This document shows positions 1-26,351 of a stretch of 64,000 nt of DNA, in pieces. Origin of the DNA: a virus; IMG/VR virus record IMGVR_UViG_3300020401_001540, positions 8,865 through 72,864 of that record. One strand, 5' to 3'. Each line of letters begins with the position of its first letter. Positions within the stretch are counted from its first letter, which is position 1. The position numbers and the translations under genes were made by a program. The notes under the pieces were generated by a model. It ran no database searches. It was given only the letters and a program-made list of their open reading frames with translations, and was not told the origin of the DNA.

Positions 1-3
1 CCA

Positions 4-318
4 GTGTCAAAACGGCTTCCTGATGATGTAGTAAGATATTGGCCAGACGTACTTAAAGACATTGATATAAAAACTATACCCATAGACTACTTGAGCTCTA
101 TAAGGATAGAATACAAGAACGGAAAGATCTGGGAAGTTGATTGCAATGCCAAAAGAAGTACTGGAGCCAAGCTCGATAACTCCATAGCTGATTTGTTTAA
201 AAACTATGGGGACGACATCTTACACGTAGATTTCAGGCTTAATACACCCAAATTAAAGCGAGATATAGAAAAAAAGACTCGTGCTTTCTTCAAGAACCCT
301 ACTAAAAAGAAGAAGTAA
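4..318 (+). CDS. hypothetical phage protein (104 aa)
   Basis: Open frame with GTG start at the window edge and a basic C-terminus. No motif recognised. Confidence 0.6.
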   Translation: MSKRLPDDVVRYWPDVLKDIDIKTIPIDYLSSIRIEYKNGKIWEVDCNAKRSTGAKLDNSIADLFKNYGDDILHVDFRLNTPKLKRDIEKKTRAFFKNPTKKKK

Positions 319-335
319 ATAAATGTGTATTTGGC

Positions 336-342
336 ATAAATA
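336..342 (+). promoter_or_regulatory. T4-like late promoter core (ATAAATA)
   Basis: ATAAATA lies 27 nt upstream of the 370 ATG, with an AGGAG RBS in between. It resembles the T4 gp55 consensus TATAAATA. Confidence 0.6.
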
Positions 343-369
343 TATATAACAATGAATTAGGAGCATTAC

Positions 370-1482
370 ATGGGTACTTTACGTTTAAAACGAGGCACTA
401 AAACAGCTTTACAAACTACTCCAGGTTTTACACCAGCTGAAGGTGAACTTGTTTATACCACAGATAGTAAGGAAGTGTTTGTAGGAGATGGGATTACTCA
501 GGGTGGGGTTCCAGTATCTGTAAGCACACAAAATTTAGAAGATTTAGGCAACGTTCAAGCATTAGCGGCACAGAAAGATCAAATACTTGTATACAACGGA
601 TCTAACTGGGCGGCAACAGATAATCCTCAAATTGATTTAAGAGGTAACATTTATGCAGATGATTCGACGCTCCTAGTTGATGCAATAAATGGAAAAATAG
701 TTGCTCCAGTAGAAACAAGTTCAGTAACTGCCACAAACATTGTTGGTAACCTTGTTGGTGATGTCACAGGATCCGTTACAGGTAATGTGGTAGGAAATAC
801 AACAGGAACACACTTTGGTAATGTAACAGGCAACCTACTTGGCGATATGCTAGGTAGTGTATTTTCAGATGATTCAAGTGTAATGATAGATTCAGTTGGT
901 AAGAGAGTAGTTGCTAACATTGAATCTCCAAGCATTACAACCACTAAAGAAATTTCAGTAACAACGGGTGGTGATAACTCAGTTATACTTGCAACTGGTA
1001 TTGCAGGTGCAGGATCAACTGGTCCTAAACTAATTGTTAGAAGTTCTAATGGTACTACAGTGGCTCCAACAGTAAGTGTTGGTGGAACAACTGGTGATGG
1101 ACTTATGGACTTGCATGGTATGGGATATGATGGCACAGATTACAAATTAGCAGGTATGTTAAGGGTAGCGGTTGATCTTGATGCTACTGTATCAGCAAAC
1201 ACTGTTCCAGGAAGAATTAATCTTATTACAGCAAATAGTTCAGGTAACCTAATTAATCTTTTAACTTTTAATAGTTCAGGTAACTTAGGTATTGGATTAC
1301 CTAGACCATTAGAAAAGTTACATGTAAACGGAAATGCTAGAGCTACAGGATTTGTGCAATTTGGTTCTTTAACAACTACTGAACGTGATGCACTTACAGC
1401 CGCTAACGGTATGGTAATTTATAATTCAAGCACTAATAAATTTCAAGGTTACGAAAACGGTAACTGGGTCAATTTAGTTTAA
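370..1482 (+). CDS. virion fibre/structural protein with Mtd/hyaluronidase-like N-terminal domain
   Basis: N-terminus LRLKRGT..FTPAEGELVYTTDSKEVFVGDG, GNxxGDVTG 4-residue repeats, and C-terminal LTTTERDALTAANGMVIYNSSTNKFQGY, all typical of phage fibre proteins. Confidence 0.75.
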   Translation: MGTLRLKRGTKTALQTTPGFTPAEGELVYTTDSKEVFVGDGITQGGVPVSVSTQNLEDLGNVQALAAQKDQILVYNGSNWAATDNPQIDLRGNIYADDSTLLVDAINGKIVAPVETSSVTATNIVGNLVGDVTGSVTGNVVGNTTGTHFGNVTGNLLGDMLGSVFSDDSSVMIDSVGKRVVANIESPSITTTKEISVTTGGDNSVILATGIAGAGSTGPKLIVRSSNGTTVAPTVSVGGTTGDGLMDLHGMGYDGTDYKLAGMLRVAVDLDATVSANTVPGRINLITANSSGNLINLLTFNSSGNLGIGLPRPLEKLHVNGNARATGFVQFGSLTTTERDALTAANGMVIYNSSTNKFQGYENGNWVNLV

Positions 1483-2452
1483 ATTTAGTAATCATTATTT
1501 CATCAAGAGTAGTACAAACTTCTTTTCCGCATATAGTCCATTCTTCGTTGAATATACTTAAATCCTTTTCAAAAATATTACCCACAATTCCTGTGTTAGC
1601 ACAGGTTCCGTATTGCACATCTCCGTTGGCCTGAATAAGTATTTTCTTATTTGTAATAGCACACTTCCAGCCTTTAAACTTATTTGTTCTTTTTTGTAAG
1701 AAATCTACCGCATTGGTTTGTATTGTGTCGTCTACCGTAAAATTAAGATAGTCAGGCATCTTTTGATCGAGTGTTTCTATATATTCTAATTCTTCTTTAG
1801 TATAATAATTCAAATCACCATTATCTAATCTTTGATGGTAACCTTTTAAATTTCTACTAGATTGATAAGTTTGATTTGTTACTTTAGTCTTTTTGTTATA
1901 TAAAGGATTAACAGGAATCTTTACAATAGGTGTTTCTTTAAGTTTCTTTTCTAATTCGAATATTTTATCAAACAAACCTTGTGCTAACATTGCTCTTACT
2001 TCAACATTGCCTCCATTGGTTTTAATCATGTTTACAAATTCTACTATTTTATTAATGTCTGCACTTTCAGGATGAAAACTAATCTTGATATTAATGTTTT
2101 TAAAAGATTCTTTACTGTAATCATATATACGTAATGGTAAACTGCCATTTGTAAATATACCAACACGCATTCCATTTTCGCCCATATAGTTAAACCACTT
2201 ATGTACGTCCTTGATTAAGAAAGGTTCTCCGCCTGTGATGTATACTAGGATAGACTTGTTTGCTGGTACTGAGTCTCTTATTTTTTTAGATGCTTTTATT
2301 AAATCATCTATTTTAGGTAGCTTAGACTTTACAATAGGTAAATGATTGCTAGGTTCACAATAACTGCAATCGTAATTACACATATCTGTAGGGCGCCAAT
2401 GTACAATATAATCTTCGTACCAATCAGATTTTTCTATCTTTGATATACTCAT
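1469..2452 (-). CDS. radical SAM protein with C-terminal SPASM/twitch-like Cys cluster
   Basis: CNYDCSYC (CxxxCxxC), TGGEP, TNGS, and C-terminal cysteines (WKC...GTC...IC...VC). Confidence 0.9.
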   Translation of the reverse strand: MSISKIEKSDWYEDYIVHWRPTDMCNYDCSYCEPSNHLPIVKSKLPKIDDLIKASKKIRDSVPANKSILVYITGGEPFLIKDVHKWFNYMGENGMRVGIFTNGSLPLRIYDYSKESFKNINIKISFHPESADINKIVEFVNMIKTNGGNVEVRAMLAQGLFDKIFELEKKLKETPIVKIPVNPLYNKKTKVTNQTYQSSRNLKGYHQRLDNGDLNYYTKEELEYIETLDQKMPDYLNFTVDDTIQTNAVDFLQKRTNKFKGWKCAITNKKILIQANGDVQYGTCANTGIVGNIFEKDLSIFNEEWTICGKEVCTTLDEIMITKFKLN

Positions 2453-3605
2453 TGTACAGATCTTTCCTGTTTATTTTTCCTTGACCTTTTCTCTTGATTT
2501 CATCTACTGAAAATATTTTTGGTATTTTATACCTTACTAGTTTGCTTTTCAATTTTTCTAAATCTACTTTACCTACTACTTCTGCATATACTCTATCATA
2601 TCCAAATACTACTGCATCTTTGGCTCCACATTGTAACAGTGCCTTTTCTACTTCGTAAGGCATAATTTTCCAACCACCCTTGATTATTGTTTCTTTTTTC
2701 CTACCAGTAATGAATAGATATCCGTCTTTGTCTATGTGTCCTATGTCTCCCGTAGCAAATCCGTTTACAATTATTTCATTATCGTCTTCAAATTTAATAT
2801 CAATTTTATCCAACACAAATCCTACACTATTGTATTTTTGCGGATAGTGCATAATGCTAATAGTTCCTATTTCATTTATGCCATAACTATCAGTTGTAAT
2901 GCAATTAAAATATTGTTGAGCTTTTATTTTAAAGTCTTTATACATTGGTGCACCAACGGTTCTTATATGTCTTATAGTCATATTTTCGTAAGGCACATCG
3001 GTCTCCATCATTCCATTTAAGACATTAGGACTTCCTATAATAAATGTTGGATTTACTTTTGGCCAGTCTTTCCAAGGATTGTTAAGAACATGATAGGTTG
3101 CTCCGTACTTGTAACAAGCAGAAAATGTTTGAAACCCTATACATACCCATAGAGGAATAAAGTTAACAGTGCTGTCTTTATTGCACAAATTTGCATGTAT
3201 TTGTATGTTATTATCTAAACCGTCTACTTCATATTGTTGTTTAGTAATTGGTACTATTCTTGGTTTGTCGGTACTACCGCTAGAACATATTCCTACCACT
3301 TCATCTTTCGCACACTGATTAAATTTAGGTTCTGGTAAAGTGTCATTCCATATATCAATATCATAAAAATCTAATTCAAAGGTTTTAGAATCTTTATCTA
3401 TTATTACCGGACTGCAAACCTTCATAGCACCAAATATCTTAAAAATATTTTTCCAATCACTATAAATGCCTATACGACAAGTTTTATCGTATCCCGCCTC
3501 TATTAGTTGATTAGTATATTCTTGAGCCAGCTTATCGAATTCTTGTTTGGTATAAGATTTTCCGCCCTCAAACTTTAGTATTATACTCACGTATTTCCTC
3601 TTCAA
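2424..3605 (-). CDS. adenylate-forming enzyme (acyl-CoA ligase/AMP-binding family), compact
   Basis: SSGSTDKP (A3), YGINE (A5), ATGDIG..DKDGYLFITGRKK (A7/A8) and GKINR (A10). The true start may be the GTG at 3590. Confidence 0.85.
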   Translation of the reverse strand: MKRKYVSIILKFEGGKSYTKQEFDKLAQEYTNQLIEAGYDKTCRIGIYSDWKNIFKIFGAMKVCSPVIIDKDSKTFELDFYDIDIWNDTLPEPKFNQCAKDEVVGICSSGSTDKPRIVPITKQQYEVDGLDNNIQIHANLCNKDSTVNFIPLWVCIGFQTFSACYKYGATYHVLNNPWKDWPKVNPTFIIGSPNVLNGMMETDVPYENMTIRHIRTVGAPMYKDFKIKAQQYFNCITTDSYGINEIGTISIMHYPQKYNSVGFVLDKIDIKFEDDNEIIVNGFATGDIGHIDKDGYLFITGRKKETIIKGGWKIMPYEVEKALLQCGAKDAVVFGYDRVYAEVVGKVDLEKLKSKLVRYKIPKIFSVDEIKRKGQGKINRKDLYNEYIKDRKI

Positions 3606-4254
3606 TCATGTTTAGGTATTGTAATCTATATTCATTATGCGATTTCAATGTCGTAGGTTGTGTCCTGTAACCATAACGTTCACCCAAATATTTATGATTA
3701 GGTTTAAGTTGATCAAACTCTTGTTGACTCATTACTTTTCCTATGTTACCATATCTAACCATATGAAAAGATCTATCAATATCGCTTACCATAAATGCAT
3801 GATGTACTCCAGGTAATTCATAATGTTTGGAAGGTGGATGCTTTAACATGTCTCTAAAAATTTTATACTTGTTTTGTCCATTATCTTCTGTACCAGCTAT
3901 TACCACTGCATTTCTATAATCTACATCAAGCATGAATTTTGCAATAGCAATACAGCCAGGATAAAATAGATAATTTTTCAAAAACTTTTTGTGATGAACA
4001 ATACCTAAAAATGCACCTAAACTAAATCCTATATGTATAAGATCACCTTCAGGAAAGTTTACATTAAACATTTCACTAAATGTGCAATCATGATCATCTT
4101 GGCGATGACTGTCACTCCACCATAGGTTTGTAATTCCGTGTGGTGTAAAGTAATCGATAAGATGTACTTCATAACCTTTGTCTTTGAAAAAATCATGGGT
4201 GAAGGTTTCGGCTGTGCCTATACCTCCACTACCATGTGATATAACTATTTTCAT
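3568..4254 (-). CDS. dienelactone hydrolase-like alpha/beta hydrolase
   Basis: HGSGG, nucleophile elbow GFSLG, GTED, and HHAF catalytic His. Confidence 0.8.
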   Translation of the reverse strand: MKIVISHGSGGIGTAETFTHDFFKDKGYEVHLIDYFTPHGITNLWWSDSHRQDDHDCTFSEMFNVNFPEGDLIHIGFSLGAFLGIVHHKKFLKNYLFYPGCIAIAKFMLDVDYRNAVVIAGTEDNGQNKYKIFRDMLKHPPSKHYELPGVHHAFMVSDIDRSFHMVRYGNIGKVMSQQEFDQLKPNHKYLGERYGYRTQPTTLKSHNEYRLQYLNMIEEEIREYNTKV

Positions 4255-5294
4255 TTTAAGCCAAGTTCGATCTTGAATACACTTTTCAAACCAAGTGCTT
4301 GTGTATTAAATGTTACAAGATCTTCTAGTGCTTCTACAGTTACAAATGTCATAAGTGTATCTCTATGATTATTACCTGCCTCACCAATTTTCCATTCGTA
4401 CTTGCCTACTTTCTTTTCGATGATAGCTCTGCTATCAGGATTATTTGACATAGCTGTTAAAGCATCTTGTAATTTTTCTGCATTAGGATTTCCTTGATTT
4501 ACCCATAGTGCTTTCTGCATTCCATCTCTAAATGACTTCACTAACTTATAAGCATTATAAAAATCACCACTTGGCTTTTGTCCCCAAAGCTGTTCAAATA
4601 ATACTTCGAATTGATAACCTGGATAGTTTGGATCATCTGCGTGACTTCCGTCAGCCTGTAGTATACCATGATGAAACCATATCACTGCATTTTCATCTGG
4701 CTCAACATGTTTTTTGTAAGCCGCAGGATTTTCTCTAGTTCCTGTTAACTCACCACGTTTAAATGCAAGACGTCTTTCACTACCGCTCATACCCTTGATC
4801 CATTTCACATTTTTCTTAAAGCAGGCAATATATTCGTCCATGCCTTTGTCAGGTCCACATATCAACATTGTCATTGCGTATGCTTCTGGTGTTTGTCCAC
4901 TACCAGCCGCAAAGCTAGGAGTTGTCATATCTTCACCAACACGTTTTCCTGCAATGATGTTAAGATTCATAAGACCAATACTTTCGTATTGACGATAATC
5001 ATAATCAACTTCTTCTTGTAAAAAGGCAACACCATTACCGCCGTGTGATACCATAATCACTTTGTCATCATTCCGCATTTCATTATGCCATTTGTTAAAT
5101 CCCGGAATATCTCTTGCTCCGGGGATATGTTTGATCTTAATGTTTTCTCCTAGATACTTTTCAAGTTCTTTAGCAACAATCTCTGCCCAGACACTTGTGC
5201 CGCCACCTGGCTTTTGGGGTACTACCATTGTATAATCTGCATGTGCAACTGTAGTAAACATTGCAAATACAAGTCCTAATAATAATTTACGCAT
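4251..5294 (-). CDS. tctC: tripartite tricarboxylate transporter substrate-binding protein (TctC/Bug)
   Basis: Signal peptide ending AHA, then the VVPQKPGGGTSVWA Bug motif. Adjacent to tctA. Confidence 0.8.
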   Translation of the reverse strand: MRKLLLGLVFAMFTTVAHADYTMVVPQKPGGGTSVWAEIVAKELEKYLGENIKIKHIPGARDIPGFNKWHNEMRNDDKVIMVSHGGNGVAFLQEEVDYDYRQYESIGLMNLNIIAGKRVGEDMTTPSFAAGSGQTPEAYAMTMLICGPDKGMDEYIACFKKNVKWIKGMSGSERRLAFKRGELTGTRENPAAYKKHVEPDENAVIWFHHGILQADGSHADDPNYPGYQFEVLFEQLWGQKPSGDFYNAYKLVKSFRDGMQKALWVNQGNPNAEKLQDALTAMSNNPDSRAIIEKKVGKYEWKIGEAGNNHRDTLMTFVTVEALEDLVTFNTQALGLKSVFKIELGLK

Positions 5295-6720
5295 AGTTTA
5301 TTTTCCTTTTTGATGTCAATCCCCATAAAAGTGTAACAGCTATTGTAACACACAAACCGAGGAATATTGGTTTGTCTAGCAGTTTATCTACCGTATAAAG
5401 TCCAGTCATTTGTACTGTGAGTGCTTCTATTCTATCTGCTAGAATAAATGCAAATAGCAGTGCTGGTCTGCTAAATTTGTATCGTTTTGCCAGTAGTCCT
5501 ACAATACTACAAATGGCAAGCATGAAATAATCTTCCCAACCGCCTGTATATTGGACACATGCCAAAATAATAAATCCAAGCAAAATTGGAAAGTAATACT
5601 TGTAAGGTATCTGTGCTATCTTCGCTATATATGGCGTCGTAAACAAGCATAGAGCGCCTACTAGCACGGTTGCAAGCATAAACCCGTACAACATACTATC
5701 AAAGAATTTAGAGTCATTTGCAAGCTCTAAAGTGCCCAATTCAAAATCCAAATATGCAAATAATCCAATTACAATAGCGGCAAAACTTGCACCAGGTATT
5801 CCAAATAAAACTGTCGGAATCATCGAAGTTGCTTTCTGTGCATTATTGGCTCCTTCAGGTCCAATCACTCCTTTAATATTTCCTTCACCAAATTTGTCTT
5901 TTGGATGGCTAGCTACTGTTGAACTATATGCCATCCAGTCTGCAACTGCTCCACCTAACCCAGGAAGCAGTCCTATAAATGCTCCTATAAATCCACCTCT
6001 GATAGCGTCCCATTTATTTTTCCATACAGCAAGTATTCCTTCTTTGGTTTGTTTACCATTACCAAGTGCCACCATGCTGGTATTTGTTCTTTGTTTTAAT
6101 CCTGATAATAATTCTGGTATAGCAAAAAGTCCTGCAACAAGTGGCATCAGTTGGACACCGTCACCTAGATATTCCCAACCGCCTGTCCACCTATCTGCAT
6201 TGGTGCTAGGATCAACTCCTATAAGTCCTACAAATAATCCTATACATAAAGCTAACAAACTTCTAAACCAAAACTTATTTGTTACAAAAGTTACACACAC
6301 AAGAGCTAACATTGTGAACGCCCATAATTCAGGTACTCCGAATATCATAATCAATTGTGTGTAGTAAGGCAATAGGAAAAATGTCAAAGATCCCCATATA
6401 AGCCCATTCAGTGTACTTGTGGTTACTGCTGAACTAATTGCATAAGTTGCCTGCCCTTTAAGTGCTAATGGAAAGCCATCTATCATTGTTGCCGCCGCAC
6501 TATTAGCACCGGGTATACCTAGCAACACTCCTGTATACGTATCTCCTGTAGTGCTTGCCGCTACCACTGCCATAACAAATATAACTGCCAAATAAGGATC
6601 TGGAAATAATGTTATAAAAGAGAATACAAAAATTAAACCCGTAGTTGCTCCTGCGCCTGGCAGTATACCAATTATCAGACCGTAAAATGTTCCTGCTAGT
6701 AATGCCAATACTGAAGCCAT
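5287..6720 (-). CDS. tctA: tripartite tricarboxylate transporter permease TctA
   Basis: Highly hydrophobic, with GILPGAG, GIPGANSAAATMIDGFPLA, GLLPGLGG and GPEGANNA motifs characteristic of TctA. Confidence 0.92.
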   Translation of the reverse strand: MASVLALLAGTFYGLIIGILPGAGATTGLIFVFSFITLFPDPYLAVIFVMAVVAASTTGDTYTGVLLGIPGANSAAATMIDGFPLALKGQATYAISSAVTTSTLNGLIWGSLTFFLLPYYTQLIMIFGVPELWAFTMLALVCVTFVTNKFWFRSLLALCIGLFVGLIGVDPSTNADRWTGGWEYLGDGVQLMPLVAGLFAIPELLSGLKQRTNTSMVALGNGKQTKEGILAVWKNKWDAIRGGFIGAFIGLLPGLGGAVADWMAYSSTVASHPKDKFGEGNIKGVIGPEGANNAQKATSMIPTVLFGIPGASFAAIVIGLFAYLDFELGTLELANDSKFFDSMLYGFMLATVLVGALCLFTTPYIAKIAQIPYKYYFPILLGFIILACVQYTGGWEDYFMLAICSIVGLLAKRYKFSRPALLFAFILADRIEALTVQMTGLYTVDKLLDKPIFLGLCVTIAVTLLWGLTSKRKINYA

Positions 6721-6736
6721 GCTATTTTCCTTCTAT

Positions 6737-6748
6737 ATAATTAATTAT
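6737..6748. promoter_or_regulatory. perfect palindrome ATAATTAATTAT in a divergent intergenic region (possible bidirectional late promoter or operator)
   Basis: 12-bp perfect palindrome between divergent tctA and the 6797 ORF. It contains TAATTA, a one-mismatch variant of TAAATA, on both strands. Confidence 0.35.
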
Positions 6749-6761
6749 GTAACAAATGTAC

Positions 6762-6799
6762 TTTTTTTAAAGAAAGTGGATTTTTTTTGAAAGAAAGTG
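6762..6799 (+). repeat. short imperfect tandem repeat T7-8(G)AAAGAAAGTG x2
   Basis: 6762-6778 TTTTTTTAAAGAAAGTG and 6781-6799 TTTTTTTTGAAAGAAAGTG. Confidence 0.6.
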
Positions 6800-7534
6800 A
6801 AAAAAATTATGAATACACGAATTTTTTCGTTAGTAATGGAAAATTTACAGCATACATTTAGCTTGCCTAAATACGCTGATTTACAGATAGATAAACAAAG
6901 CATCATTGATGACTTACCCTTTACTCCTGCACGTAAAGAAAAATTTTGCCAGAGTATAATGAATGAATTAGATATAGATTACTTAGATTTAACAGGTACA
7001 ATAGAAGAATTTGTGCAATCTTTAGATACTTTTTATATGAAAAGATTCTTTGGAGAAATTTGGAAACCAAATACAGATGAGCATACCTATAGTGGTTGGA
7101 GTATAGTTGACAGAATAAATGAACGCAATCCAAAAAATGTTCTTGACTTTGGGTGTGGTTACAATCAATTTAAACCACGAATAAAAAATTTAACTGGTAT
7201 TGATCCGTTTAATGAAAATGCAGACTACATGGTTGACATTTTAGATTTCAATGTAGATGAAAAATACGACCACATGATTGTATTTGGCAGTCTAAACTTT
7301 GGTGATGAAAACGATATAAGATTACGTTTCAAAAAATTATATTCCCTACTAGCAACAGGTGGTAGAATGTATTTTAGAGTCAATCCAGGAATACTTTGGC
7401 CTAAAGGTCCTTATGTAGATATCTTTCCGTGGAGTTTTGAATTTGCATACGCCCTTGCAAAAGAACATAATTGTAAATTAGAACAATACAAAAAAGATCG
7501 AAAACGCTTTTACTTTGAAATCTTAAAGATGTGA
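6797..7534 (+). CDS. class I SAM-dependent methyltransferase with N-terminal degenerate acyl-carrier-like domain
   Basis: VLDFGCG motif I, GIDP, and YDHMIVFGSLNF. The N-terminal ~80 aa follow the ACP helix pattern. Likely start is the ATG at 6809. Confidence 0.75.
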   Translation: MKKIMNTRIFSLVMENLQHTFSLPKYADLQIDKQSIIDDLPFTPARKEKFCQSIMNELDIDYLDLTGTIEEFVQSLDTFYMKRFFGEIWKPNTDEHTYSGWSIVDRINERNPKNVLDFGCGYNQFKPRIKNLTGIDPFNENADYMVDILDFNVDEKYDHMIVFGSLNFGDENDIRLRFKKLYSLLATGGRMYFRVNPGILWPKGPYVDIFPWSFEFAYALAKEHNCKLEQYKKDRKRFYFEILKM

Positions 7535-8275
7535 TCTATTTTCAAATAATACTTTACACTTATCATAATTTTCTTTATTAACAATTAGTCCTAATTTTTT
7601 ACACATCTCTTCATATACATCAAATTTCAACACATCATTTATTTCTGTAATAATAACATCTTTATCTGTTGAATGTGTTTTATAGTTTTTTATTTGATTT
7701 TCAAACTCGTTTACTAATACTTGCTTCATTGTTATGCCTTGCTGTTTAGCTTTGTCTTCATATAAATCTTTGTAAAGATATTCCTTATTTTTAGGATCAA
7801 CAAAATAATAGTAACTACTACGCATCCATCTTTCAATTAATAAATCAATGTCATTTGGAATAACCACTACATATTGAGCAGGATCAAAAAACTTTTTTGT
7901 CTCATCTAGATTATCGTGTAAAGTATAAATGAAATGATTAGGATATAATTTTTTCTTCCAGGCTTGTATATCATTTGGTGTTGTGTTTATTCCTCTTGAA
8001 CGGGCAAAACTCAAGACTGGTGGTATTGTATATTCAGGATCTAACCCTTTAGGCTTTGCTCCCTTGAATCTCTTGTTGAAATGCATTTTACTGAAATCTT
8101 TATCTTTACCCATATAAGGTAACCATGGATGTTCATTGTTTTGTTCATGATCGTACCATGCAACATTATCGCAACAAGCTATCATACGTCCTAGCATGTG
8201 TCCTCCACTGCCTTGCGGAAAATTTAATGTAATACAATTACTTTCTACCATAATACCAATAGCATCCGTTTTCAA
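7523..8275 (-). CDS. hypothetical protein, possible sulfotransferase/P-loop-like fold
   Basis: N-terminal LNFPQGSGGHMLGRMI resembles the 5'-PSB loop of sulfotransferase-like phage proteins. Weak evidence. Confidence 0.4.
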   Translation of the reverse strand: MKTDAIGIMVESNCITLNFPQGSGGHMLGRMIACCDNVAWYDHEQNNEHPWLPYMGKDKDFSKMHFNKRFKGAKPKGLDPEYTIPPVLSFARSRGINTTPNDIQAWKKKLYPNHFIYTLHDNLDETKKFFDPAQYVVVIPNDIDLLIERWMRSSYYYFVDPKNKEYLYKDLYEDKAKQQGITMKQVLVNEFENQIKNYKTHSTDKDVIITEINDVLKFDVYEEMCKKLGLIVNKENYDKCKVLFENRSHL

Positions 8276-8918
8276 ATTTTACAATATCACCTGTGGCAAA
8301 CCAATCATCATATACACAGATTTTACCTTTTACAAAAAGTTCTTTTCTTATAATTTTAACCTCACAAAAAGTTGTATCTCCAATTATTGTGTGTAAAGGT
8401 AAATCATAAGCCTCAGGATCTTGTTCTGTATAAGTTTTGTTTATTGCCATAGGTCCTATTTCACTCATTCCCCAATTAGCAATAAATGTTGCTCCTTTTG
8501 CTACATATCTATTAATGCATTCTGCAGGTACTCTATCACTACCACAAGCAATAATTTTATCTTTTAAATCTAGATTATTCCAACCTTTTGTTTTTGTGAT
8601 AGCAAGTGCCATACCCGGTGTAAGATGACTATGTGTAAAATGTTTTATCTTGCTAACCCAACTAAAAGGATTAAATTGTTCAATGTGTATTTCTGCATCA
8701 ATTTCTAAAGCTGGCAATGTTTGTGCAAATAAACCACCTGCATGGTCTAATTTACACACGGTATAAATTTTACTGGTTCTTGTAATTTTTTGAACATCAC
8801 GTGCGGCTTGATTTGCATGTTTTATTTTATCAGGGCTTTGATAAATTTGCTTTGCTGGTCCTGTTGTACCACTAGAACTAATACTAGTTCCGTTTTTTAA
8901 AATGTTTTTCAGTTCCAT
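8238..8918 (-). CDS. minimal AMP-binding (adenylation) domain protein
   Basis: SSSGTTGPAK, WGMSE, WFATGDIV...YGRK. The protein ends at the hinge, with no C-terminal subdomain. Confidence 0.8.
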   Translation of the reverse strand: MELKNILKNGTSISSSGTTGPAKQIYQSPDKIKHANQAARDVQKITRTSKIYTVCKLDHAGGLFAQTLPALEIDAEIHIEQFNPFSWVSKIKHFTHSHLTPGMALAITKTKGWNNLDLKDKIIACGSDRVPAECINRYVAKGATFIANWGMSEIGPMAINKTYTEQDPEAYDLPLHTIIGDTTFCEVKIIRKELFVKGKICVYDDWFATGDIVKFENGCYWYYGRK

Positions 8919-9090
8919 CAGTGATCTTCTTAGCTAATTTGTAAGGTGTAAAAGCAAATAAAAAAGGAAATATGGCATGTATTGTACCAGTTATAAAGAC
9001 TAACAAAGCTAGTATGTTAAAGTACATAGCATAAAAGAAGTGTTTAAAATAATTAGATTTTACTTTTTTAAGATGATTCCATTCTATCAT
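8884..9090 (-). CDS. small membrane protein, DUF6356-like
   Basis: HL...YFKHF..AM...IHAIFPFLF pattern. The ATG at 9090 overlaps the halogenase stop (ATGA). Confidence 0.6.
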   Translation of the reverse strand: MIEWNHLKKVKSNYFKHFFYAMYFNILALLVFITGTIHAIFPFLFAFTPYKLAKKITDGTEKHFKKRN

Positions 9091-10163
9091 AGCATATGAT
9101 CCTTCAACAAATTCCAACTATGTTTTCCCATAAGTCCTTGATGTCCATTCTCACTGTAAAAATATATATCATTTACAGCCTCCTCTTTATTCTCTTTGTA
9201 ATAATCCCAATACTTTCCTTTCCTAGTATTACACGAATATAATGCCTTTATCCATTTATGTATTCCTGTATATGTTTTATTAATCAATCTGTTATATGCA
9301 TCAGGCTTGTCCTCCAATAAAAGAAAATTTTTGATTCCGCTTTGAGCCGCAAAATTTGCAGTAGCATTTAAAGGTTCTATAAATCCTGCACTCAAACCTA
9401 AAAATAAAACATTATCTTTCCAAGCCTGCTCTGGTATTCTAGTTTCAAATTTGATTACGTTTTCATGTTTAATTCCTGTTGTGTTTTCAAATTCTTTTAT
9501 TGCATTGTTAATAGAAATGTATTTAGAACTAAAAACATAACCGTAACTTAATCTTGTTTGTAAACTTATACTCCATAACCACCCATTGCTTAGAGCTTGT
9601 GATTTAGTGTAAGGAATATATTTGCTTTGAGCATTACCAATCACTGCATAGTCATTTATAAGGAAATCACTTTTATGATGCACTAAACCTACTTGATCAG
9701 AAAGCACACCGTTTTGTCCTGTAGCATCAACATAAAACTCATCTTTATTATATTGATCTTTTGTAAATTGGGAATTTACAATTTCGAAATTATCTTGCTG
9801 TTCACACCATTTCTGTATCACTTGACAAAATCCAGGAGCATCTATATGATAAGCATAAGTTTGATGTCTATCCGTTTCTAATGCTTTAGGCTCATTTGCA
9901 GAGTAATAAAGCCAACTATTATTATCTTTCCAACCAGAAAATAATGTCCCGTATTTGAAAAAACCATTTACCTTGTTTAAAAATTCTTGATCTGACATAC
10001 CTATCAATTTAGGTATTTCGTTTATTGTAGGTACAGTAGATTCGCCTATTTTTCTAACGTTTGTATTTGGATCTCTAAATAATGTAACTTGTTTGTTTGC
10101 TTTTAGCAAATACAGACATGCTATCCAAGACGCAGTACCACTTCCAATTACATTAATTTTCAT
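9087..10163 (-). CDS. flavin-dependent (tryptophan) halogenase family protein, compact
   Basis: IGSGTASW FAD motif, IGESTVP, FKYG (conserved Lys), VDATG, GWLWSI (WxWxI) and GLSAGFIEPL. Confidence 0.85.
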   Translation of the reverse strand: MKINVIGSGTASWIACLYLLKANKQVTLFRDPNTNVRKIGESTVPTINEIPKLIGMSDQEFLNKVNGFFKYGTLFSGWKDNNSWLYYSANEPKALETDRHQTYAYHIDAPGFCQVIQKWCEQQDNFEIVNSQFTKDQYNKDEFYVDATGQNGVLSDQVGLVHHKSDFLINDYAVIGNAQSKYIPYTKSQALSNGWLWSISLQTRLSYGYVFSSKYISINNAIKEFENTTGIKHENVIKFETRIPEQAWKDNVLFLGLSAGFIEPLNATANFAAQSGIKNFLLLEDKPDAYNRLINKTYTGIHKWIKALYSCNTRKGKYWDYYKENKEEAVNDIYFYSENGHQGLMGKHSWNLLKDHML

Positions 10164-10680
10164 ACCGCTTCCTTATTTCAAAATATCTATCAACATTTAA
10201 TTTCCAAATACTTTGCCATGAATTGAAAACTTGCTCGTTACAGATCCATTCAACCATCTTACCTCTAGCCATAGCAGAAAAACTATTGTGTATCCTATTC
10301 ATTCTCCCACTGTTATCTCTATCAGTGTTTGTTGTTATGTACAAAGGCTTACCTTGTGCAAATTCTATTTGTAAAGGAAGATGTGCATATATACCCCAAC
10401 TTTGCATTTGATATCTATTGAGTCCTTTTATAGGTCTTGGTGATAATTGAGCACCTCTGTACAATGCTCTATATCCATCCTTGAACGGATGTATACCAGT
10501 CATTGCAATTATATGATTAAAGTCATTGTCATATGTTGCGTACCAAGCACCTTCTTCTAAACACCAATCCCAACGCATTTCTTTTAGACTGCTGTTATTT
10601 TTAAAACCTTTCAAGGAACATTTAAAAATAAATTCTTGCACAGCAGGATTTAATTCTTGCACTCTTTCTGTAGAAATCAT
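10153..10680 (-). CDS. hypothetical protein, possibly GNAT-fold
   Basis: Beta-strand pattern WYATYD..IIAMTGIH..GYRALYR is loosely GNAT-like. Translationally coupled to its neighbours. Confidence 0.4.
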   Translation of the reverse strand: MISTERVQELNPAVQEFIFKCSLKGFKNNSSLKEMRWDWCLEEGAWYATYDNDFNHIIAMTGIHPFKDGYRALYRGAQLSPRPIKGLNRYQMQSWGIYAHLPLQIEFAQGKPLYITTNTDRDNSGRMNRIHNSFSAMARGKMVEWICNEQVFNSWQSIWKLNVDRYFEIRKRYEN

Positions 10681-11297
10681 TTTGCTCTCATTCGCTCAAT
10701 GACTGTCATTACTGTTTTAGGATTAGTTCCTACATTAAGTACAATCATATAAGCATCTTCGCTCCCAGCATTAAACAAATGATGTTGTTTTGCAGTATTA
10801 AGAAAATATGCAGAGCCGTTTTTCCAAGGTAAAATTTTATCTTCTAGCATAAACGTAAACTTAGGATATTCCATATTTCTCATAGGCACAATTATTCTAA
10901 AAGAATGTAAGTCAGTAGATTTGAAATCTCTGTGTGGTGGAAAAAATCCTCCTGGAGGTATTTTTAAGAAGTGTGAACGTCCTACATAAGGTTGCCAATG
11001 TTCGCATAACTTTTTAATTTCAGGATGCTCGTAAACAGGTGTAGGTACATTAATATCCATCTCTGTTGGCATTGATGCAGGATCTTCTGCATAAAAGGAA
11101 TCAAGGTCAGGACGTCCTGACAGACCTCCGTCTAAACTTGTAATACTTAATCCCCAACGATTTATGTTTTTTCTTGGATTATATTTTACGTAGGTAAAAT
11201 TTTCTTCTGTCCATTGCACTATTTTTTTTGGATCTTTTAGTGTGATATCTAGTTCTATAAAATCTCCGTATGTGCATAATGTAACGTATTCTAGCAT
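10677..11297 (-). CDS. 2OG-Fe(II) oxygenase, aspartyl/asparaginyl beta-hydroxylase-like
   Basis: PGGFFPPHRD (HxD) plus NTAKQHHLFN (distal His), consistent with a DSBH pattern. Confidence 0.8.
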   Translation of the reverse strand: MLEYVTLCTYGDFIELDITLKDPKKIVQWTEENFTYVKYNPRKNINRWGLSITSLDGGLSGRPDLDSFYAEDPASMPTEMDINVPTPVYEHPEIKKLCEHWQPYVGRSHFLKIPPGGFFPPHRDFKSTDLHSFRIIVPMRNMEYPKFTFMLEDKILPWKNGSAYFLNTAKQHHLFNAGSEDAYMIVLNVGTNPKTVMTVIERMRAK

Positions 11298-11315
11298 TAA
11301 CCTCTCCTGATATTA

Positions 11316-11322
11316 TACTTAT
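11316..11322 (-). promoter_or_regulatory. late promoter variant ATAAGTA
   Basis: Upstream of the oxygenase start at 11297, with an AGGAGAGG RBS. Confidence 0.45.
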
Positions 11323-11359
11323 TTGGTTTCAACAACAAATTTTTGCATTATGGCACGTA

Positions 11360-11366
11360 ATAAATA
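11360..11366 (+). promoter_or_regulatory. late promoter core ATAAATA
   Basis: Upstream of the AAGGAG RBS and GTG start at 11392. Confidence 0.55.
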
Positions 11367-11391
11367 TGTATAACGAATCAAGGAGACTATT

Positions 11392-12378
11392 GTGGGTAAT
11401 AAATTTGGCAAAAGTAAAAAGTTTGGTGAAAGTGTAGAAGAAGGGAGAGGTGAATCCTGGACTAGAATTTGCCGTATTGCCTATGGGTTTAATGTAAAAG
11501 ATAAAACAAGAGACACTGCTATAAAGCACATGTTCTATAACTGGGACCAAGAGATGGAAGTTATACGCAATATGCAAAAGTGTCAGCGTAATTGGGATTA
11601 TAGCCAACCTGTACATCCTGAAACTATTGATTATCTACTATGGCACGCAGAAAATGCTCCATCAAAACAACACGAAGCATACTACGATGTATACTGGACA
11701 GCAGACAGAAAAGTAATTGAAGAATGTTCAAAGTATACCTGGGGATCAACACACACTAGAACTCCGCCTTCAACATGGCGTAACACACAAGCTAATGCTA
11801 ACTTGTACATACTTTTTGTAGCAAAGCAACCTGAAACACAACAAAACTGTAATAGTGACGGAACATTAAAAGATAACAAACATCATGCACGTTGGGAAAA
11901 TTCTTATGTCAGTATAGGTATTGCTATGGGACTTGTTATGAGAGCCGCAAATAGTTTAGGACTTGCAACAGGCTGTAATAAAAGTCATGGAGACCTAAAT
12001 GGCAATATGTTCTGGGAAAAGAAACTAGGAATAGAACAAGATGTGTTGGATGGTAAGAAAAAAATTGCCTATGGAATAGGAATAGGTACTCCACAAGAAG
12101 GTAGACCAAGATGGGAAACTGATGATTATGAATTAGCAATTGGTTCAGGTAACGGAAGTCATCTTACCACACTAGACGAAAGTCATCCTGACTGGACAGA
12201 AAGGCGTCAACTTCCTGCACCTTGGGACAAAAAGTTTAATAAAATTAAAATTGTAGACATAAGAACCACAGATAAAGCAACTGATCCTTATGGTGTAGAA
12301 CACAAAATACCAAGCGAATCTTCTATCAAAGTAAACACTATAAGGAAGAGAATAATCAACGTAACGGAAATAAAGTAA
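11392..12378 (+). CDS. nitroreductase-fold (FMN) protein
   Basis: QKCQRNWD, ENAPSKQ, IGIAMG...ANSLGLATGC and GIGIG. Confidence 0.75.
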   Translation: MGNKFGKSKKFGESVEEGRGESWTRICRIAYGFNVKDKTRDTAIKHMFYNWDQEMEVIRNMQKCQRNWDYSQPVHPETIDYLLWHAENAPSKQHEAYYDVYWTADRKVIEECSKYTWGSTHTRTPPSTWRNTQANANLYILFVAKQPETQQNCNSDGTLKDNKHHARWENSYVSIGIAMGLVMRAANSLGLATGCNKSHGDLNGNMFWEKKLGIEQDVLDGKKKIAYGIGIGTPQEGRPRWETDDYELAIGSGNGSHLTTLDESHPDWTERRQLPAPWDKKFNKIKIVDIRTTDKATDPYGVEHKIPSESSIKVNTIRKRIINVTEIK

Positions 12379-13076
12379 TGCAAACTAGATTACTAGCCTA
12401 TGGGTGTAGTAATACATTTGGTGAAGGTTTAGATGATGTCTGGCATCATGATCCTAATTTAAAGTATGGTAGCAATAGCATGAAACCTAGTCGCTACGCT
12501 TGGCCTCGAGAACTAGGCAAACTTATGAACTTTGATGAAGTTCATAATCACGCCGAAGGTGGTGCATCAAATAAGAAAATATGGCTTAATATTTTACAAA
12601 CAAAAATAGATCCTATTACAGATACTGTAGTTGTACAATGGACATTTGTTGCTAGATGGACAATTTTTTATGATGATGGTTCTAGTGAAAGATTTTTACC
12701 AAATGATATTGATAACAAAGAAGGTAAAATGAGAATGTCTAAAGGTATAGCGTTACAAAAGATAAAAGATGAAAAAACAAATAGGACTGAAGCTTGGTAT
12801 GGAAATTTTCATAGTGACATAGATGCCATTCTAGACACTTATTGTAGAATATCACATATCAAACATTATCTTGATAATAAAGGTGTGAGAAATTTTCATT
12901 TTATAAACGATAAAAGATGGGCGTGGCAAAGTGATTCCCAATTGATAGATCCAAAAATTTGTAAATGTTTATTGTTTAAAAAAGAACATGGCGTAGCACT
13001 AGACGGAATGCATCCTAGTAGAAAAGCACATAAGAAGTATGCTCAAGCAATTTATGAACATATGAGATCATCATGA
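12378..13076 (+). CDS. SGNH/GDSL hydrolase-like protein
   Basis: GCSNTFG block I, GASN block II and DGMHP block V. Confidence 0.75.
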   Translation: MQTRLLAYGCSNTFGEGLDDVWHHDPNLKYGSNSMKPSRYAWPRELGKLMNFDEVHNHAEGGASNKKIWLNILQTKIDPITDTVVVQWTFVARWTIFYDDGSSERFLPNDIDNKEGKMRMSKGIALQKIKDEKTNRTEAWYGNFHSDIDAILDTYCRISHIKHYLDNKGVRNFHFINDKRWAWQSDSQLIDPKICKCLLFKKEHGVALDGMHPSRKAHKKYAQAIYEHMRSS

Positions 13077-13705
13077 ATAGATTAGTAGCCTTTGGTTGTA
13101 GTCACACTTACGGCGAAGGTTTAAAGGATTGTTGGGTTAATGGGAAAGCAGGAAAACTTCCAAGCAAATATGCATGGCCTCAACTACTTGCAGATAGATT
13201 GAAAAGGAAGTGTTTTAATAAAGGTATGGAGGGTGCCTCTAATAAATTTATTTGGCATAAAATTTTAAACACAGAATTTACGGACAAAGACATTGTTGTA
13301 ATCTTATGGACATATTATAACCGCACATGTATTTTAGAAAACAAAGATTCATTCCAAAGAATTATGGTAAGTGATGTTGACAATCCTTTTAGACCAGAAC
13401 AAGAAAGATTGTTTGCAAAAAATTATTACGAAAATTATTACACCGACTATGACGTGGTTACACACAGTATAGGATATTTTAATCATATTAAGAGTTACTT
13501 AGATAACCTAAAAGTAAAAAACTTTCATCTAATTAATAAAGAACCTTTTGCAAGGCATCCTATTCCGGAATGGAATCAAGTTGTTTTACATCCTATAGAC
13601 TTGCATTTTGATTTACCTCTCGCCGAAGATAACAAACATCCTGGTGAGCAAGCACATCAATCGATAAGTGATCATGTATATTCTATAATCGACCAATCAA
13701 AGTAA
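13073..13705 (+). CDS. SGNH/GDSL hydrolase-like protein (paralog of the upstream gene)
   Basis: GCSHTYG, GASN and DNKHP. Confidence 0.75.
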   Translation: MNRLVAFGCSHTYGEGLKDCWVNGKAGKLPSKYAWPQLLADRLKRKCFNKGMEGASNKFIWHKILNTEFTDKDIVVILWTYYNRTCILENKDSFQRIMVSDVDNPFRPEQERLFAKNYYENYYTDYDVVTHSIGYFNHIKSYLDNLKVKNFHLINKEPFARHPIPEWNQVVLHPIDLHFDLPLAEDNKHPGEQAHQSISDHVYSIIDQSK

Positions 13706-14360
13706 ATCTTGTACCTCTTGGATCTGGTACTTCATCTTCAATTAATACCTCAGCGTTTTCAGGTAACTGGTCTTTGAACTCTTGTATAGTGTGTACACAA
13801 TTTGTATGTGTAGGTATATCAAACATAGCATTTGATTGAAAAGCAAAGTAAGCTGGCGATACTCTACTCCACCAAGGATTTTTGTACTTGGGCCAAGGTC
13901 CCCATTCCTTCATAGGAGCCATGTGTTCACAAGATGTATTAATAAACAAATCGCATGTCGTATATTGATCTCTGTATTTTTCAAAAACATCACCCGTAAT
14001 AAAATCTATATCGAATCCTTTAAACAATTCATATTTGGCTCGGTATATTACATCAGAATCAACATCGATACAAGTAATTTTTTTTACTTCGTTATAGAAA
14101 GCAGGTATTAAAATACTGCCATACCAACTACCCATTATAACTATTTCCGAATCTTTGTTTAAAAAATTTAAACTTTTAATATGATCAATTAAATTCAATT
14201 TTGATAAAAACTGATTTGAACTGAAACTATCTAACACATCTTTTTGTCTTAGTTGCCTTAGCCTATTCTTATCTGCATCAGGCGTATTTGCAAAGTCACG
14301 CATTTCTTGTGTAACTAAATTATCAATTATTGTTTGTAATTGTTTTACATCTATCGCCAT
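13683..14360 (-). CDS. class I SAM-dependent methyltransferase-like protein
   Basis: VIMGSWYG glycine loop, CIDVD, GDV and INTSCEH. Confidence 0.65.
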   Translation of the reverse strand: MAIDVKQLQTIIDNLVTQEMRDFANTPDADKNRLRQLRQKDVLDSFSSNQFLSKLNLIDHIKSLNFLNKDSEIVIMGSWYGSILIPAFYNEVKKITCIDVDSDVIYRAKYELFKGFDIDFITGDVFEKYRDQYTTCDLFINTSCEHMAPMKEWGPWPKYKNPWWSRVSPAYFAFQSNAMFDIPTHTNCVHTIQEFKDQLPENAEVLIEDEVPDPRGTRFTLIGRL

Positions 14361-15097
14361 TTTACTACATCCTGTATTGGTGGTTTACGATCTGTTCCTT
14401 TATTATCATGGTCTATTAGCCATTGGTATCTATAATATTCTCCGTATCCTATTGACATAATAGAATGAACTTTTGCCAATTGATTTTCGTTGTCATACCA
14501 CAACCAAGGCGTGTCTTTCCATTTATAGGGTCTTTTAGGAAGGCATGCACAATATGATACATCAATTCCTTGTTCTAAACATAAAACTGTTAAGGCTTGT
14601 GCAAATAAACCAACTTCAAAGCTAGTGCTTTCTGCTATGTGCTCTACTTTATCTACTTCACATTGTTCGGCATAATGGCCTTCTACTCTTACTTTTTCCT
14701 TGTAAAACTCATTAGGCTCAGGTACAACTCTTGAAGCAAATACTATCAAGTGTGAATTTTCTAATACGTGTGCATATGAGGGATTAATTTCAAACTTATA
14801 TTCTACCTTCATTTTAGGATTAGCTTTTGTGTCTACTTCAAGACCTTTCTCATCATAACGAATGTGATTACCTACTACTTTGTCATATATAATTTTTTTT
14901 CTTTTATCACCAGGACCCAAAACGTTTACAGTATATGGCATAAAATTATTCTTTGATGGAGAAACTTTCCATGCTTTATAGAGTATTTTTGATAAAACAT
15001 CATCAGATACATTTTTGTCACTGTATCTTAACACATGATGTCTTTTTTCCAATGTAGTGAGTATGTCTTTTTTCTTACTCATTTTTTCATACTCCAA
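14351..15097 (-). CDS. nitroreductase-fold protein
   Basis: KRHHVLRY, SPSKNNFMPY, EVGLF...GIDVSY and SIGYG. Confidence 0.75.
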   Translation of the reverse strand: MEYEKMSKKKDILTTLEKRHHVLRYSDKNVSDDVLSKILYKAWKVSPSKNNFMPYTVNVLGPGDKRKKIIYDKVVGNHIRYDEKGLEVDTKANPKMKVEYKFEINPSYAHVLENSHLIVFASRVVPEPNEFYKEKVRVEGHYAEQCEVDKVEHIAESTSFEVGLFAQALTVLCLEQGIDVSYCACLPKRPYKWKDTPWLWYDNENQLAKVHSIMSIGYGEYYRYQWLIDHDNKGTDRKPPIQDVVKWR

Positions 15098-16557: not shown

Positions 16558-17390
16558 TGTTCTAATGCTATTTTTTCTAAAATTTCTAATCTACGTTTTG
16601 CAGGTCTTGGTGGAATAATATCCATACAAATTTTACAATAACTTTCAAATTGAAACAAATCAAAATTCATCATTTTATCTATGTTTTCTTTTGTAACGTC
16701 AAAGGCTCTTGAGCCATTAATTACCTTTCTACTGCAATGTCTTATCTTTTGAATTTCAAAATCAATTACAGGAACCAAAGGGAACTTTGCACATACCCTT
16801 CTGTCTAGTTCCGGTGCTTGTACCATTTCGTGATCACTAAAAAAGTCAGGAGATCTTGAATTGTATTCTTTGAATTCTGTGTTTTTATGATCAATAATAC
16901 TAAGATCATGTTTATCTCTATATGCAAAATATCCTGGTGTTTCGATTATAAGATTGTAATTATTTAAATCATTAGGCTCAAACCAATCATAGTTTCCTAA
17001 TTTTTCAATTCGGTCTTCATAAAAGTCAAGTATAAGGTGTTCAATATATATAATCTCAGGATCTTCTAATATTTCTGGATAAAACTTCCTAACAAGTGAG
17101 TTTGATAAAACCTGTATTTGAAGATTTTCATACTTTTTTATTTCTGCTATTACTTCATTAAGATTTTTTATAAGTCCAGGTTCGCCTCCCAGTAAACAAA
17201 TTCTAGTCTTGTATGGGCTTAAATACTGGCATGTTCTACGTAGAAAATCCATGTCTACTGTCAAATAACGCATTTCCAATGTCCATGCTGTACAATAGTG
17301 GCATGACTTGTTACAAGACTTTGACAGATAAAAGTCCACTGTAAGATAATCCGAATTCTTCAAATCAGCTAGAGTATTGATTTTTTTCAT
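16554..17390 (-). CDS. radical SAM protein
   Basis: CNKSCHYC, LGGEP, and C-terminal cysteines. Confidence 0.85.
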   Translation of the reverse strand: MKKINTLADLKNSDYLTVDFYLSKSCNKSCHYCTAWTLEMRYLTVDMDFLRRTCQYLSPYKTRICLLGGEPGLIKNLNEVIAEIKKYENLQIQVLSNSLVRKFYPEILEDPEIIYIEHLILDFYEDRIEKLGNYDWFEPNDLNNYNLIIETPGYFAYRDKHDLSIIDHKNTEFKEYNSRSPDFFSDHEMVQAPELDRRVCAKFPLVPVIDFEIQKIRHCSRKVINGSRAFDVTKENIDKMMNFDLFQFESYCKICMDIIPPRPAKRRLEILEKIALEQ

Positions 17391-17395
17391 ACTAA

Positions 17396-17401
17396 TATTT
17401 A
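17396..17401 (-). promoter_or_regulatory. late promoter core TAAATA, 5 nt before ATG
   Basis: Reads GTAAATA-TTAGT-ATG on the minus strand. Confidence 0.5.
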
Positions 17402-18046: not shown

Positions 18047-18047
18047 C

Positions 18048-26319: not shown

Positions 26320-26342
26320 AGTAATACTCCATTAAGCACTAC

Positions 26343-26348
26343 TATTTA
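26343..26348 (-). promoter_or_regulatory. late promoter core TAAATA
   Basis: Intergenic, upstream of the glycosyltransferase/radical SAM gene run. Confidence 0.5.
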
Positions 26349-26351
26349 ATA

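Follow-up and report, generated by a model that had tools for sequence, protein, structure and literature searches.

What does a bacteriophage gain from carrying genes for a carboxylate transporter next to a set of enzymes? This question is raised by a block of five genes in a 64,000-nucleotide stretch of viral DNA (the window), which comprises bases 8865 to 72864 of the 72,864-base IMG/VR virus record IMGVR_UViG_3300020401_001540. The block is predicted to encode a TctA permease and a TctC-like solute-binding protein of the tripartite tricarboxylate transporter (TTT) family, which we take to be class TC 2.A.80. These genes are followed by a hydrolase, an acyl-coenzyme A (acyl-CoA) ligase of the ANL type, and a radical S-adenosylmethionine (SAM) enzyme. 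The original prediction, made from the sequence alone, described a pathway in which a carboxylate is imported, hydrolyzed, adenylated, and modified by radical chemistry. Our analysis supported this proposal in part. Its solid core is a two-component uptake pair of the TTT type that belongs to a phage clade, and the link to the ligase has good support from synteny. We consider it moderately probable that the phage encodes in this block a two-part uptake module of the TTT kind, which depends on a binding protein and is joined to acid-processing enzymes.

The five open reading frames (ORFs) lie on the minus strand (Table 1), and the overlapping stops and starts described for them were borne out. 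The tctA and tctC genes overlap by 8 nt, with AAGGA preceding the tctC ATG; tctC and the hydrolase gene share 4 nt (ATGA), and the ligase and radical SAM genes share 29 nt. With a ligase start at TTG 3605, the hydrolase and ligase genes would overlap by 38 nt. An alternative start, GTG at codon 6 (position 3590), is preceded by AAGAGGAAA, a good ribosome-binding site, and gives a protein of 388 amino acids. Because of this site, and because the resulting length matches that of the homologues (387 to 389 amino acids), GTG 3590 appears to be the likelier start, which would reduce the overlap to 23 nt. At its stop, the radical SAM gene shares 14 nt with the Mtd_N gene, which converges on it, and the sole gap of the block lies ahead of tctA. 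This arrangement fits a single transcript for the five genes.

The first gene was identified unambiguously as tctA by sequence comparison. Its product matched the PF01970 profile over positions 2 to 422 of 423 (E = 2.9e-94; 316.6 bits against a cutoff of 28.9), and NCBIfam and PHROGs gave no match for it. The protein is 28 to 36% identical to cellular TctA proteins, and 2548 relatives were found at E ≤ 1e-10 among 8000 proteins scored.

The product of the second gene had no Pfam, PHROG, or NCBIfam match. It did not match the TctC model PF03401 at E ≤ 0.01, and a six-frame comparison of the entire record with this model found nothing at E ≤ 1. Although neither this protein nor the hydrolase has a Pfam family, both of the labels originally given to them held on evidence from folds and profiles, that of the hydrolase as a prediction. 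When a profile of 16 members of the binding-protein family was compared with all PDB sequences, only BugD (E = 0.018) and MatC (E = 0.26) were retrieved, and both alignments were in register from the N-terminal strand to the glycine-rich P-x-x-x-GG-x-T loop of the binding protein. An AlphaFold2 (AF2) model of the protein had a predicted local distance difference test (pLDDT) value of 84.4 and a predicted template modeling score of 0.82. In a Foldseek search with this model, ranks 1 to 17 were all TTT binding proteins (E = 3.6e-10 to 1e-7), including TphC, MatC, Bug27, BugD, BugE, AdpC, and a terephthalate-binding protein, and other classes of periplasmic binding protein appeared only below rank 17. 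In addition, 396 proteins were retrieved by an exhaustive HMMER search at E ≤ 1e-3; of 28 distant relatives of full length taken from this set, five matched PF03401 at E ≤ 0.01 and three exceeded its cutoff. In a tblastn comparison, the binding protein aligned with TctC genes from Virgibacillus and Lentibacillus over about 305 amino acids (23% identity). Because the PDB profile, Foldseek, the relatives that match PF03401, and tblastn agree, we place the protein in the TctC/Bug superfamily as a very divergent member, predicted from its sequence and modeled fold to be a secreted binding protein. Among 2835 candidates scored, 1610 relatives were found at E ≤ 1e-3, on contigs of up to 346,728 bases.

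The original prediction had also noted that no TctB gene is present in the window, and this was confirmed. The TctB model PF07331 gave no match at E ≤ 1 anywhere in the 72.9-kb record, which is an estimated 15% of the genome. A hydrophobicity scan of ORFs of at least 40 amino acids in positions 1 to 30000 of the window showed no small gene with multiple transmembrane segments, and the multi-transmembrane ORFs other than TctA were all antisense ORFs within larger genes. In 40 related viral loci, covered for up to 10 kb per side, TctA was the sole ORF with at least three hydrophobic segments. As a positive control, seven of eight cellular loci (L050 to L057) showed an ORF of 146 to 208 amino acids with four or five segments adjoining TctA. 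A hydrophobic ORF of 77 amino acids (68 from an internal ATG) lies between a halogenase-like gene and the short ligase gene of the window. It was considered as a stand-in for TctB and rejected, as it has one or two hydrophobic stretches and its homologues (63 to 95% identity) occur in just 11 of the 40 loci.

The TctA proteins that lack TctB also stood apart from cellular TTTs in a maximum-likelihood tree. This tree came from a quick search, with a careful search unfinished, and its cellular sample was small and biased by the search patterns. It held the window, 20 viral loci (L003 to L042) that each stood for a different one of the 24 tctA identity groups described below, loci L043 to L049, and eight of nine cellular loci, the partial L055 being left out together with the viral near-duplicates and the groups of L004, L010, L018, and L023. 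The TctB-less proteins, 21 from viruses and seven from contigs of metagenome-assembled genomes (MAGs), formed one group, separated from the eight TctB-linked cellular proteins by a branch of length 3.55 with a Shimodaira-Hasegawa-like approximate likelihood ratio test (SH-aLRT) value of 100.

When TctA was docked with residues 20 to 347 of the binding protein, the median score of three runs was 0.65, a mark attained by 116 of 157 solved complexes and 2 of 215 mismatched pairs; the best of three controls scored 0.00. The runs had at least 94% of contacts in common, and the partner pLDDT was at least 85. In the model, both lobes of the binding protein contact TctA, including the GGGT loop (residues 28 to 32) and the AGSG loop (127 to 132). 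This result supports, and does not in itself show, an association of the two proteins. It also bears on whether the pair might serve sensing, the exclusion of other phages, or the export of a product of the surrounding genes instead of metabolite import. The absence of TctB, the strong divergence of the binding protein, and the long branch of the TctA clade would all be compatible with such a role. We nevertheless regard it as improbable, since in the docking model the two lobes face TctA with their cleft side, the arrangement expected for delivery, and no sensor kinase or other signaling gene was seen nearby. Moreover, all characterized TTT systems that use a binding protein are, to our knowledge, importers.

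Next, we examined the conservation of the block. A scan of IMG/VR with TctA yielded the 40 viral loci, at 41 to 95% identity and with one on a 328-kb contig; the locus scans rest on a few peptide patterns. The binding protein was found next to TctA in all 34 assessable loci, and the methyltransferase-like gene beside tctA was present in 37 of the 38 loci with upstream DNA. Smaller shares of the assessable loci had the ligase of the block (15 of 29), the hydrolase (7 of 26), and the radical SAM gene (7 of 24). Scans with the single ligase and hydrolase proteins recovered just three loci each, and an alignment of the ligase was needed to recover 20. Fifteen of these 20 are on tctA contigs, two begin within tctC, and three begin too late to be judged. 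In the viral collection, the ligase gene stood directly behind tctC in all 17 assessable ligase loci, with or without an intervening hydrolase gene. The linkage of transporter and ligase is one-sided: the ligase accompanies the pair, and the pair is often found without it. The idea of import followed by adenylation has synteny support. The genes for the hydrolase and the radical SAM enzyme occur only in the closest relatives and are add-ons of the sub-lineage.

Several observations weigh against joining the five genes in one process. The 40 loci correspond to 24 groups at 98% tctA nucleotide identity, and many are near-duplicates. Of the assessable loci, 14 of 29 lack the ligase, 19 of 26 the hydrolase, and 17 of 24 the block radical SAM gene, so that a fixed order of import, hydrolysis, adenylation, and radical modification was not upheld. 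The arrangements found were TctC-ligase, TctC-hydrolase-ligase, TctC-hydrolase-ligase-radical SAM (the window), and TctC-AMP-binding fragment-ligase-hydroxylase. In locus L030, a short ligase, an unknown gene, a methyltransferase-like gene, TctA, TctC, two AMP-binding genes, and a hydroxylase-like gene are co-directional. Among more distant loci, six radical SAM/SPASM genes lie beside the pair in L037 and L040, B12-type radical SAM genes in L027, and B12-type radical SAM genes with class I methyltransferases in L047 to L049. In other relatives, the neighbors of TctA-TctC are instead class I methyltransferases, 2-oxoglutarate (2OG) oxygenases, or radical SAM enzymes of the B12 or SPASM type. 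Because the neighboring enzymes vary in this way between relatives, the pair behaves as a cassette that is combined with many enzyme sets. The missing TctB counts on the same side, since the permease may depend on a subunit from the host or have another mode of action. So do the failure of the binding protein to match the Pfam TctC model, the weak hydrolase model, and the limited information in the ligase matches, as described below.

The variable neighbors could be read as unrelated passengers of a hypervariable island that act on sugar, virion protein, or DNA. The transporter would then be a stand-alone auxiliary pair that boosts the uptake of a common nutrient acid, such as a C4-dicarboxylate, citrate, or an amino acid. 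The constancy of TctA-TctC among changing neighbors agrees with this explanation. The gene set of the island, which runs from the MoxR, DUF2201, and Mtd_N genes to the tail fibers, resembles sugar or peptide tailoring, and marine myovirus islands that gather host-like genes have been described in the available text of PMC8115048. We consider the explanation unlikely, however, because every assessable ligase orthologue stood immediately after tctC, the genes overlap, and the methyltransferase-like gene keeps its place beside tctA. The distance of the binding protein from characterized TctC proteins is also easier to reconcile with a special cargo than with an ordinary nutrient.

The preferred reading, an uptake module joined to acid-processing enzymes, would work as follows. 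The secreted TctC-fold protein would capture a small organic acid in the periplasm of the host, which is presumably Gram-negative, and would pass it to the TctA permease. In this phage sub-lineage, the dedicated compact ANL ligase would then adenylate the imported acid, which might be trapped as an acyl-AMP, a thioester, or an amide. The radical SAM enzyme and the hydrolase, a putative esterase or thioesterase, may be later additions that process a precursor or the product.

The ligase matched PF00501 (E = 1.2e-18) and carries SSGSTDKPR, YGINE, TGD, GRKKE, and GKI, which we take to be ANL motifs. Its sequence therefore indicates a complete, although short, ANL enzyme. The best PDB sequence matches were oxalyl-CoA synthetase (4e-16), MenE (o-succinylbenzoate-CoA), and malonyl-CoA synthetase, and the C-terminal domain, including GKI, aligned to oxalyl-CoA synthetase. 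Because this likeness comes mainly from the C-terminal domain, which does not set specificity, these matches tell little about the substrate. All 77 NCBIfam matches of the ligase were far under their cutoffs (the best had 85.9 bits against 476), and none gave a named substrate subfamily.

The hydrolase gave no Pfam, PHROG, or NCBIfam match, and a profile search of the PDB with an alignment of the hydrolase gave none. Its candidate catalytic triad, S78 (in GFSLG), D124, and H151 or H152, was invariant in five sequences. As a lead, its Atlas neighbors were clusters of the dienelactone hydrolase family (0.93 to 0.95). The AF2 model was weak (pLDDT, 64.7), and the Foldseek matches listed for it were all alpha/beta hydrolases, themselves weak (E of about 1e-3 and template modeling score of about 0.4). 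Taken together, the motif and residues, the Atlas neighbors, and the structural matches point to a predicted alpha/beta serine hydrolase.

The radical SAM protein carries the canonical CxxxCxxC cluster motif at residues 25 to 32 (Table 1) and matched PF04055 (E = 1.8e-10; 41.7 bits against a cutoff of 29.5). It has four more cysteines near its C terminus, which from their position may form a twitch- or SPASM-like cluster; the NCBIfam twitch/SPASM matches were all below threshold, and NCBIfam named no subfamily. MoaA was the sole PDB sequence match (E = 9e-4), and the PHROG matches were phrog_13987 and QueE-like PHROGs. Because phrog_13987 is also matched by another radical SAM gene of the island (Table 1), the enzyme may belong to the wider chemistry of the island as much as to the transporter.

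The block was then placed in its genomic context. IMG/VR rates the record as 15% complete, and therefore the full genome would be about 0.4 to 0.5 Mb. PHROG matches across the window give a myovirus-type structural and replication set, with a baseplate wedge (6.4e-285), baseplate hub/lysozyme, tail fiber and tail proteins, a late sigma factor, and SbcC/SbcD-type nuclease subunits. The baseplate wedge protein is 34 to 37% identical to counterparts from jumbo phages with genomes of 337 to 490 kb, its relatives being those of Sinorhizobium phage Phosso, Agrobacterium phage Atu_ph07, Salicola phage SCTP-2, and the Rak2-like group. A single ORF of 5002 amino acids lies between the baseplate wedge gene and a phrog_11259 gene, which in turn comes after tail-fiber-like genes. 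The 8.9 kb before the window encodes GTP cyclohydrolase I, a QueE-like enzyme, a 5'-3' exonuclease, a MoxR-type ATPase, and a DUF2201 protein. The GTP cyclohydrolase I and QueE-like radical SAM genes are at positions 1 to 399 and 1089 to 2018 of this upstream record segment (L002), and they suggest a 7-deazaguanine pathway in the phage. The GC fraction of positions 1 to 8000 is 0.32 to 0.38, compared with 0.28 to 0.39 over the whole window, and there is no compositional break. Because phage genes flank the block on both sides and the GC content is even, the five genes sit well inside jumbo-phage DNA and are not part of a host chimera, in agreement with the viral origin claimed for them.

Host DNA, introduced by misassembly or recent capture, is accordingly an explanation that is close to refuted, although cellular copies exist. 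A scan of a genome collection gave seven MAG contigs with an A-then-C pair (47 to 69% TctA identity), labeled as six unrelated bacterial groups and one unclassified bacterium. Contig G002:C39 (loci L059 and L060; 33.7 kb; GC, 48 to 49%) has genes for an outer-membrane efflux protein, Band 7, ABC transporters, LpxA-like, DnaJ, and YcaO/TfuA proteins around a TctB-less pair (55% identity for TctA and 57% for the binding protein). Close to this pair are a 2OG-Fe(II) oxygenase gene, a radical SAM gene of 585 amino acids, YcaO/TfuA, and a class III aminotransferase gene. Because these neighbors are plainly bacterial, the pair is present in at least one real bacterium. Two of the seven MAGs hold a jumbo-phage baseplate gene on other contigs and probably include binned phage DNA. 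In addition, the position next to Mtd_N, DUF2201, and MoxR recurs in many independent viral contigs, up to the one of 328 kb. Among isolate phages, the 5.25-kb block used as a DNA query gave zero matches, and the TctA protein retrieved just seven records at 24 to 29% identity, several of them unannotated or bacterial-looking. No cultured relative is available.

The surroundings of the block include two further constant partners. These are the methyltransferase-like gene and, often, the short AMP-binding protein, and both lie beyond positions 1469 to 6720, the range given in the original prediction. The methyltransferase-like protein matched Methyltransf_23 below the cutoff (E = 6e-4; 20 bits against 27), and a PDB sequence search gave no match. 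The short AMP-binding protein begins at the phosphate-loop motif, stops precisely at the hinge motif, and has no C-terminal domain; of the 23 loci that extend 3 kb to either side, 18 have a homologue as a separate gene. The product of the gene after it has sulfotransferases as Atlas neighbors (0.92 to 0.93) with only 137 to 145 shared features, which is a lead only. A tailoring-type island of about 20 kb extends past the five-gene block. It holds tryptophan-halogenase-like, Asp/Arg-hydroxylase-like, three nitroreductase-like, carbamoyltransferase, and DegT aminotransferase genes, as well as further radical SAM genes and a SPASM-like ORF. On the Mtd_N side, the island edge is constant, with the Mtd_N gene followed by DUF2201 and then the MoxR-type ATPase.

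The spacer between tctA and the divergent methyltransferase-like gene is probably the promoter/operator region of the block, judging from its sequence elements at positions 6735 to 6799 (Table 1). The palindrome and the ribosome-binding site are kept in 9 of 12 aligned related loci. A generic scan for promoters and terminators gave a result no better than that for shuffled sequences. Because the T4 late promoter consensus occurs once in the window, against 11 occurrences expected by chance, and is absent from the five-gene block, the timing of expression cannot be inferred from it.

Table 1. Positions of the transporter block, its upstream region, and other features in the window
Feature	Position	Strand	Remarks
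tctA, TTT-family permease	5287-6720	-	477 amino acids; at least 9 hydrophobic segments
tctC-like solute-binding protein	4251-5294	-	347 amino acids; classical signal peptide MRKLLLGLVFAMFTTVAHA; no lipobox cysteine
Alpha/beta serine hydrolase (predicted), dienelactone-hydrolase/esterase-like	3568-4254	-	228 amino acids
Compact ANL ligase	2424-3605	-	388-393 amino acids; likely start GTG 3590; both domains
Radical SAM enzyme	1469-2452	-	327 amino acids; CNYDCSYC (C25, C29, C32)
Spacer between tctA and methyltransferase-like gene	6721-6796	-	76 nt, between divergent genes
Direct repeat CACTTTCTTT(C)A7-8	6799-6781 and 6778-6762	-	Upstream of tctA
AT-rich palindrome ATAATTAATTAT	6748-6737	-	TATAAT-like boxes; form in relatives ATATAATTAATTATAT
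Ribosome-binding site AAGGA			Before the tctA ATG, in the 76-nt spacer
Methyltransferase-like gene	6797-7534	+	245 amino acids; divergent from tctA; most constant neighbor of the pair
Sulfotransferase-like gene (lead)	7523-8275	-	250 amino acids; after the 226-amino-acid AMP-binding gene
Short AMP-binding protein	8238-8918	-	226 amino acids; PF00501, E = 3.8e-10
Hydrophobic ORF	8884-9117	-	77 amino acids
Mtd_N (major tropism determinant N-terminal) gene	370-1482	+	Homologues in L008, L016, L025, and L030
Tailoring-type island	7523-27266		About 20 kb
Island radical SAM gene	16554-17390		phrog_13987
phrog_11259 gene	32698-33309
Long ORF	33331-48339	-	5002 amino acids

Phage auxiliary genes are mostly enzymes. 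If the proposed role is true, a conserved binding-protein-dependent importer would let a virus alter what an infected cell takes from seawater. The TctB-less pair offers a natural test of whether TctA needs TctB, an unsettled point for the TTT family, and the binding protein and the ligase offer a tractable entry to the unexplained islands of tailoring enzymes in marine jumbo phages. In a broader form, which we find possible and rather doubtful, an abundant clade of ocean jumbo phages would have its own TctB-independent, two-component branch of the TTT family. Together with a dedicated mini-ANL ligase, this branch would constitute a viral "import and trap" system that, in the course of infection, turns a dissolved marine compound into a phage-specific metabolite or a precursor for modification.

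Finally, we compared the block with known systems. Characterized TTT systems include TctCBA of Salmonella, BctCBA and the Bug proteins of Bordetella, TphC, MatC, and AdpC. Like them, the phage block has a PF01970 permease and a secreted binding protein of the TctC/Bug fold, encoded by adjoining genes, and the two products are modeled to dock. Unlike them, it has no TctB within 10 kb in any of the related viral loci, its binding protein fails PF03401, and its gene order is A then C. In addition, its TctA lies at low identity to the cellular proteins on a long separate branch, and the module is phage-borne.

Stand-alone archaeal TctA proteins (arCOG04469) have been reported by Makarova et al. 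(2015, PMC5898192), and the available part of that article considers that TctA may function without other subunits. The phage system resembles these genes in having TctA without TctB; unlike them, as they mostly also lack TctC, it has kept a binding protein in every assessable locus. Among viruses, tctA was listed as an auxiliary metabolic gene of SUP05 viruses by Roux et al. (2014, PMC4164917), in the accessible text as "protein domain hit only" and with the role unknown. The viral listing is repeated in a table footnote of PMC6359870, and tricarboxylate-transport genes were placed in a norB/nirK viral island by Gazitua et al. (2020, PMC8115048), according to the portions of those articles that were available. 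The original statement that a TTT transporter is not a standard phage auxiliary gene was therefore too strong. These cases resemble the present one in having a TTT gene on marine viral contigs amid an island of host-like genes. In the available text of PMC4164917 and PMC8115048, supplements aside, the genes are a domain hit or a table entry, and no binding protein, lack of TctB, or linked enzymes are described. Many versions of TctCBA and TctAB occur in the flexible islands of SAR11, as the available text of two further sources indicates (PMC11796062; bioRxiv 10.64898/2026.10.07.757358).

In the literature on TTT genes of phages and viral contigs, supplements aside, we found neither the phage pair nor its lack of TctB nor its linkage to a ligase described. 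In bacterial acid catabolism, genes for the uptake of, for example, dicarboxylates or aromatic acids can lie beside genes for acyl-CoA ligases. Unlike these sets, the phage block has no downstream catabolic genes, and its ligase is unusually short (about 388 amino acids). By analogy, the phage block would share with them the uptake of an acid followed by the ATP-dependent activation of the same acid.

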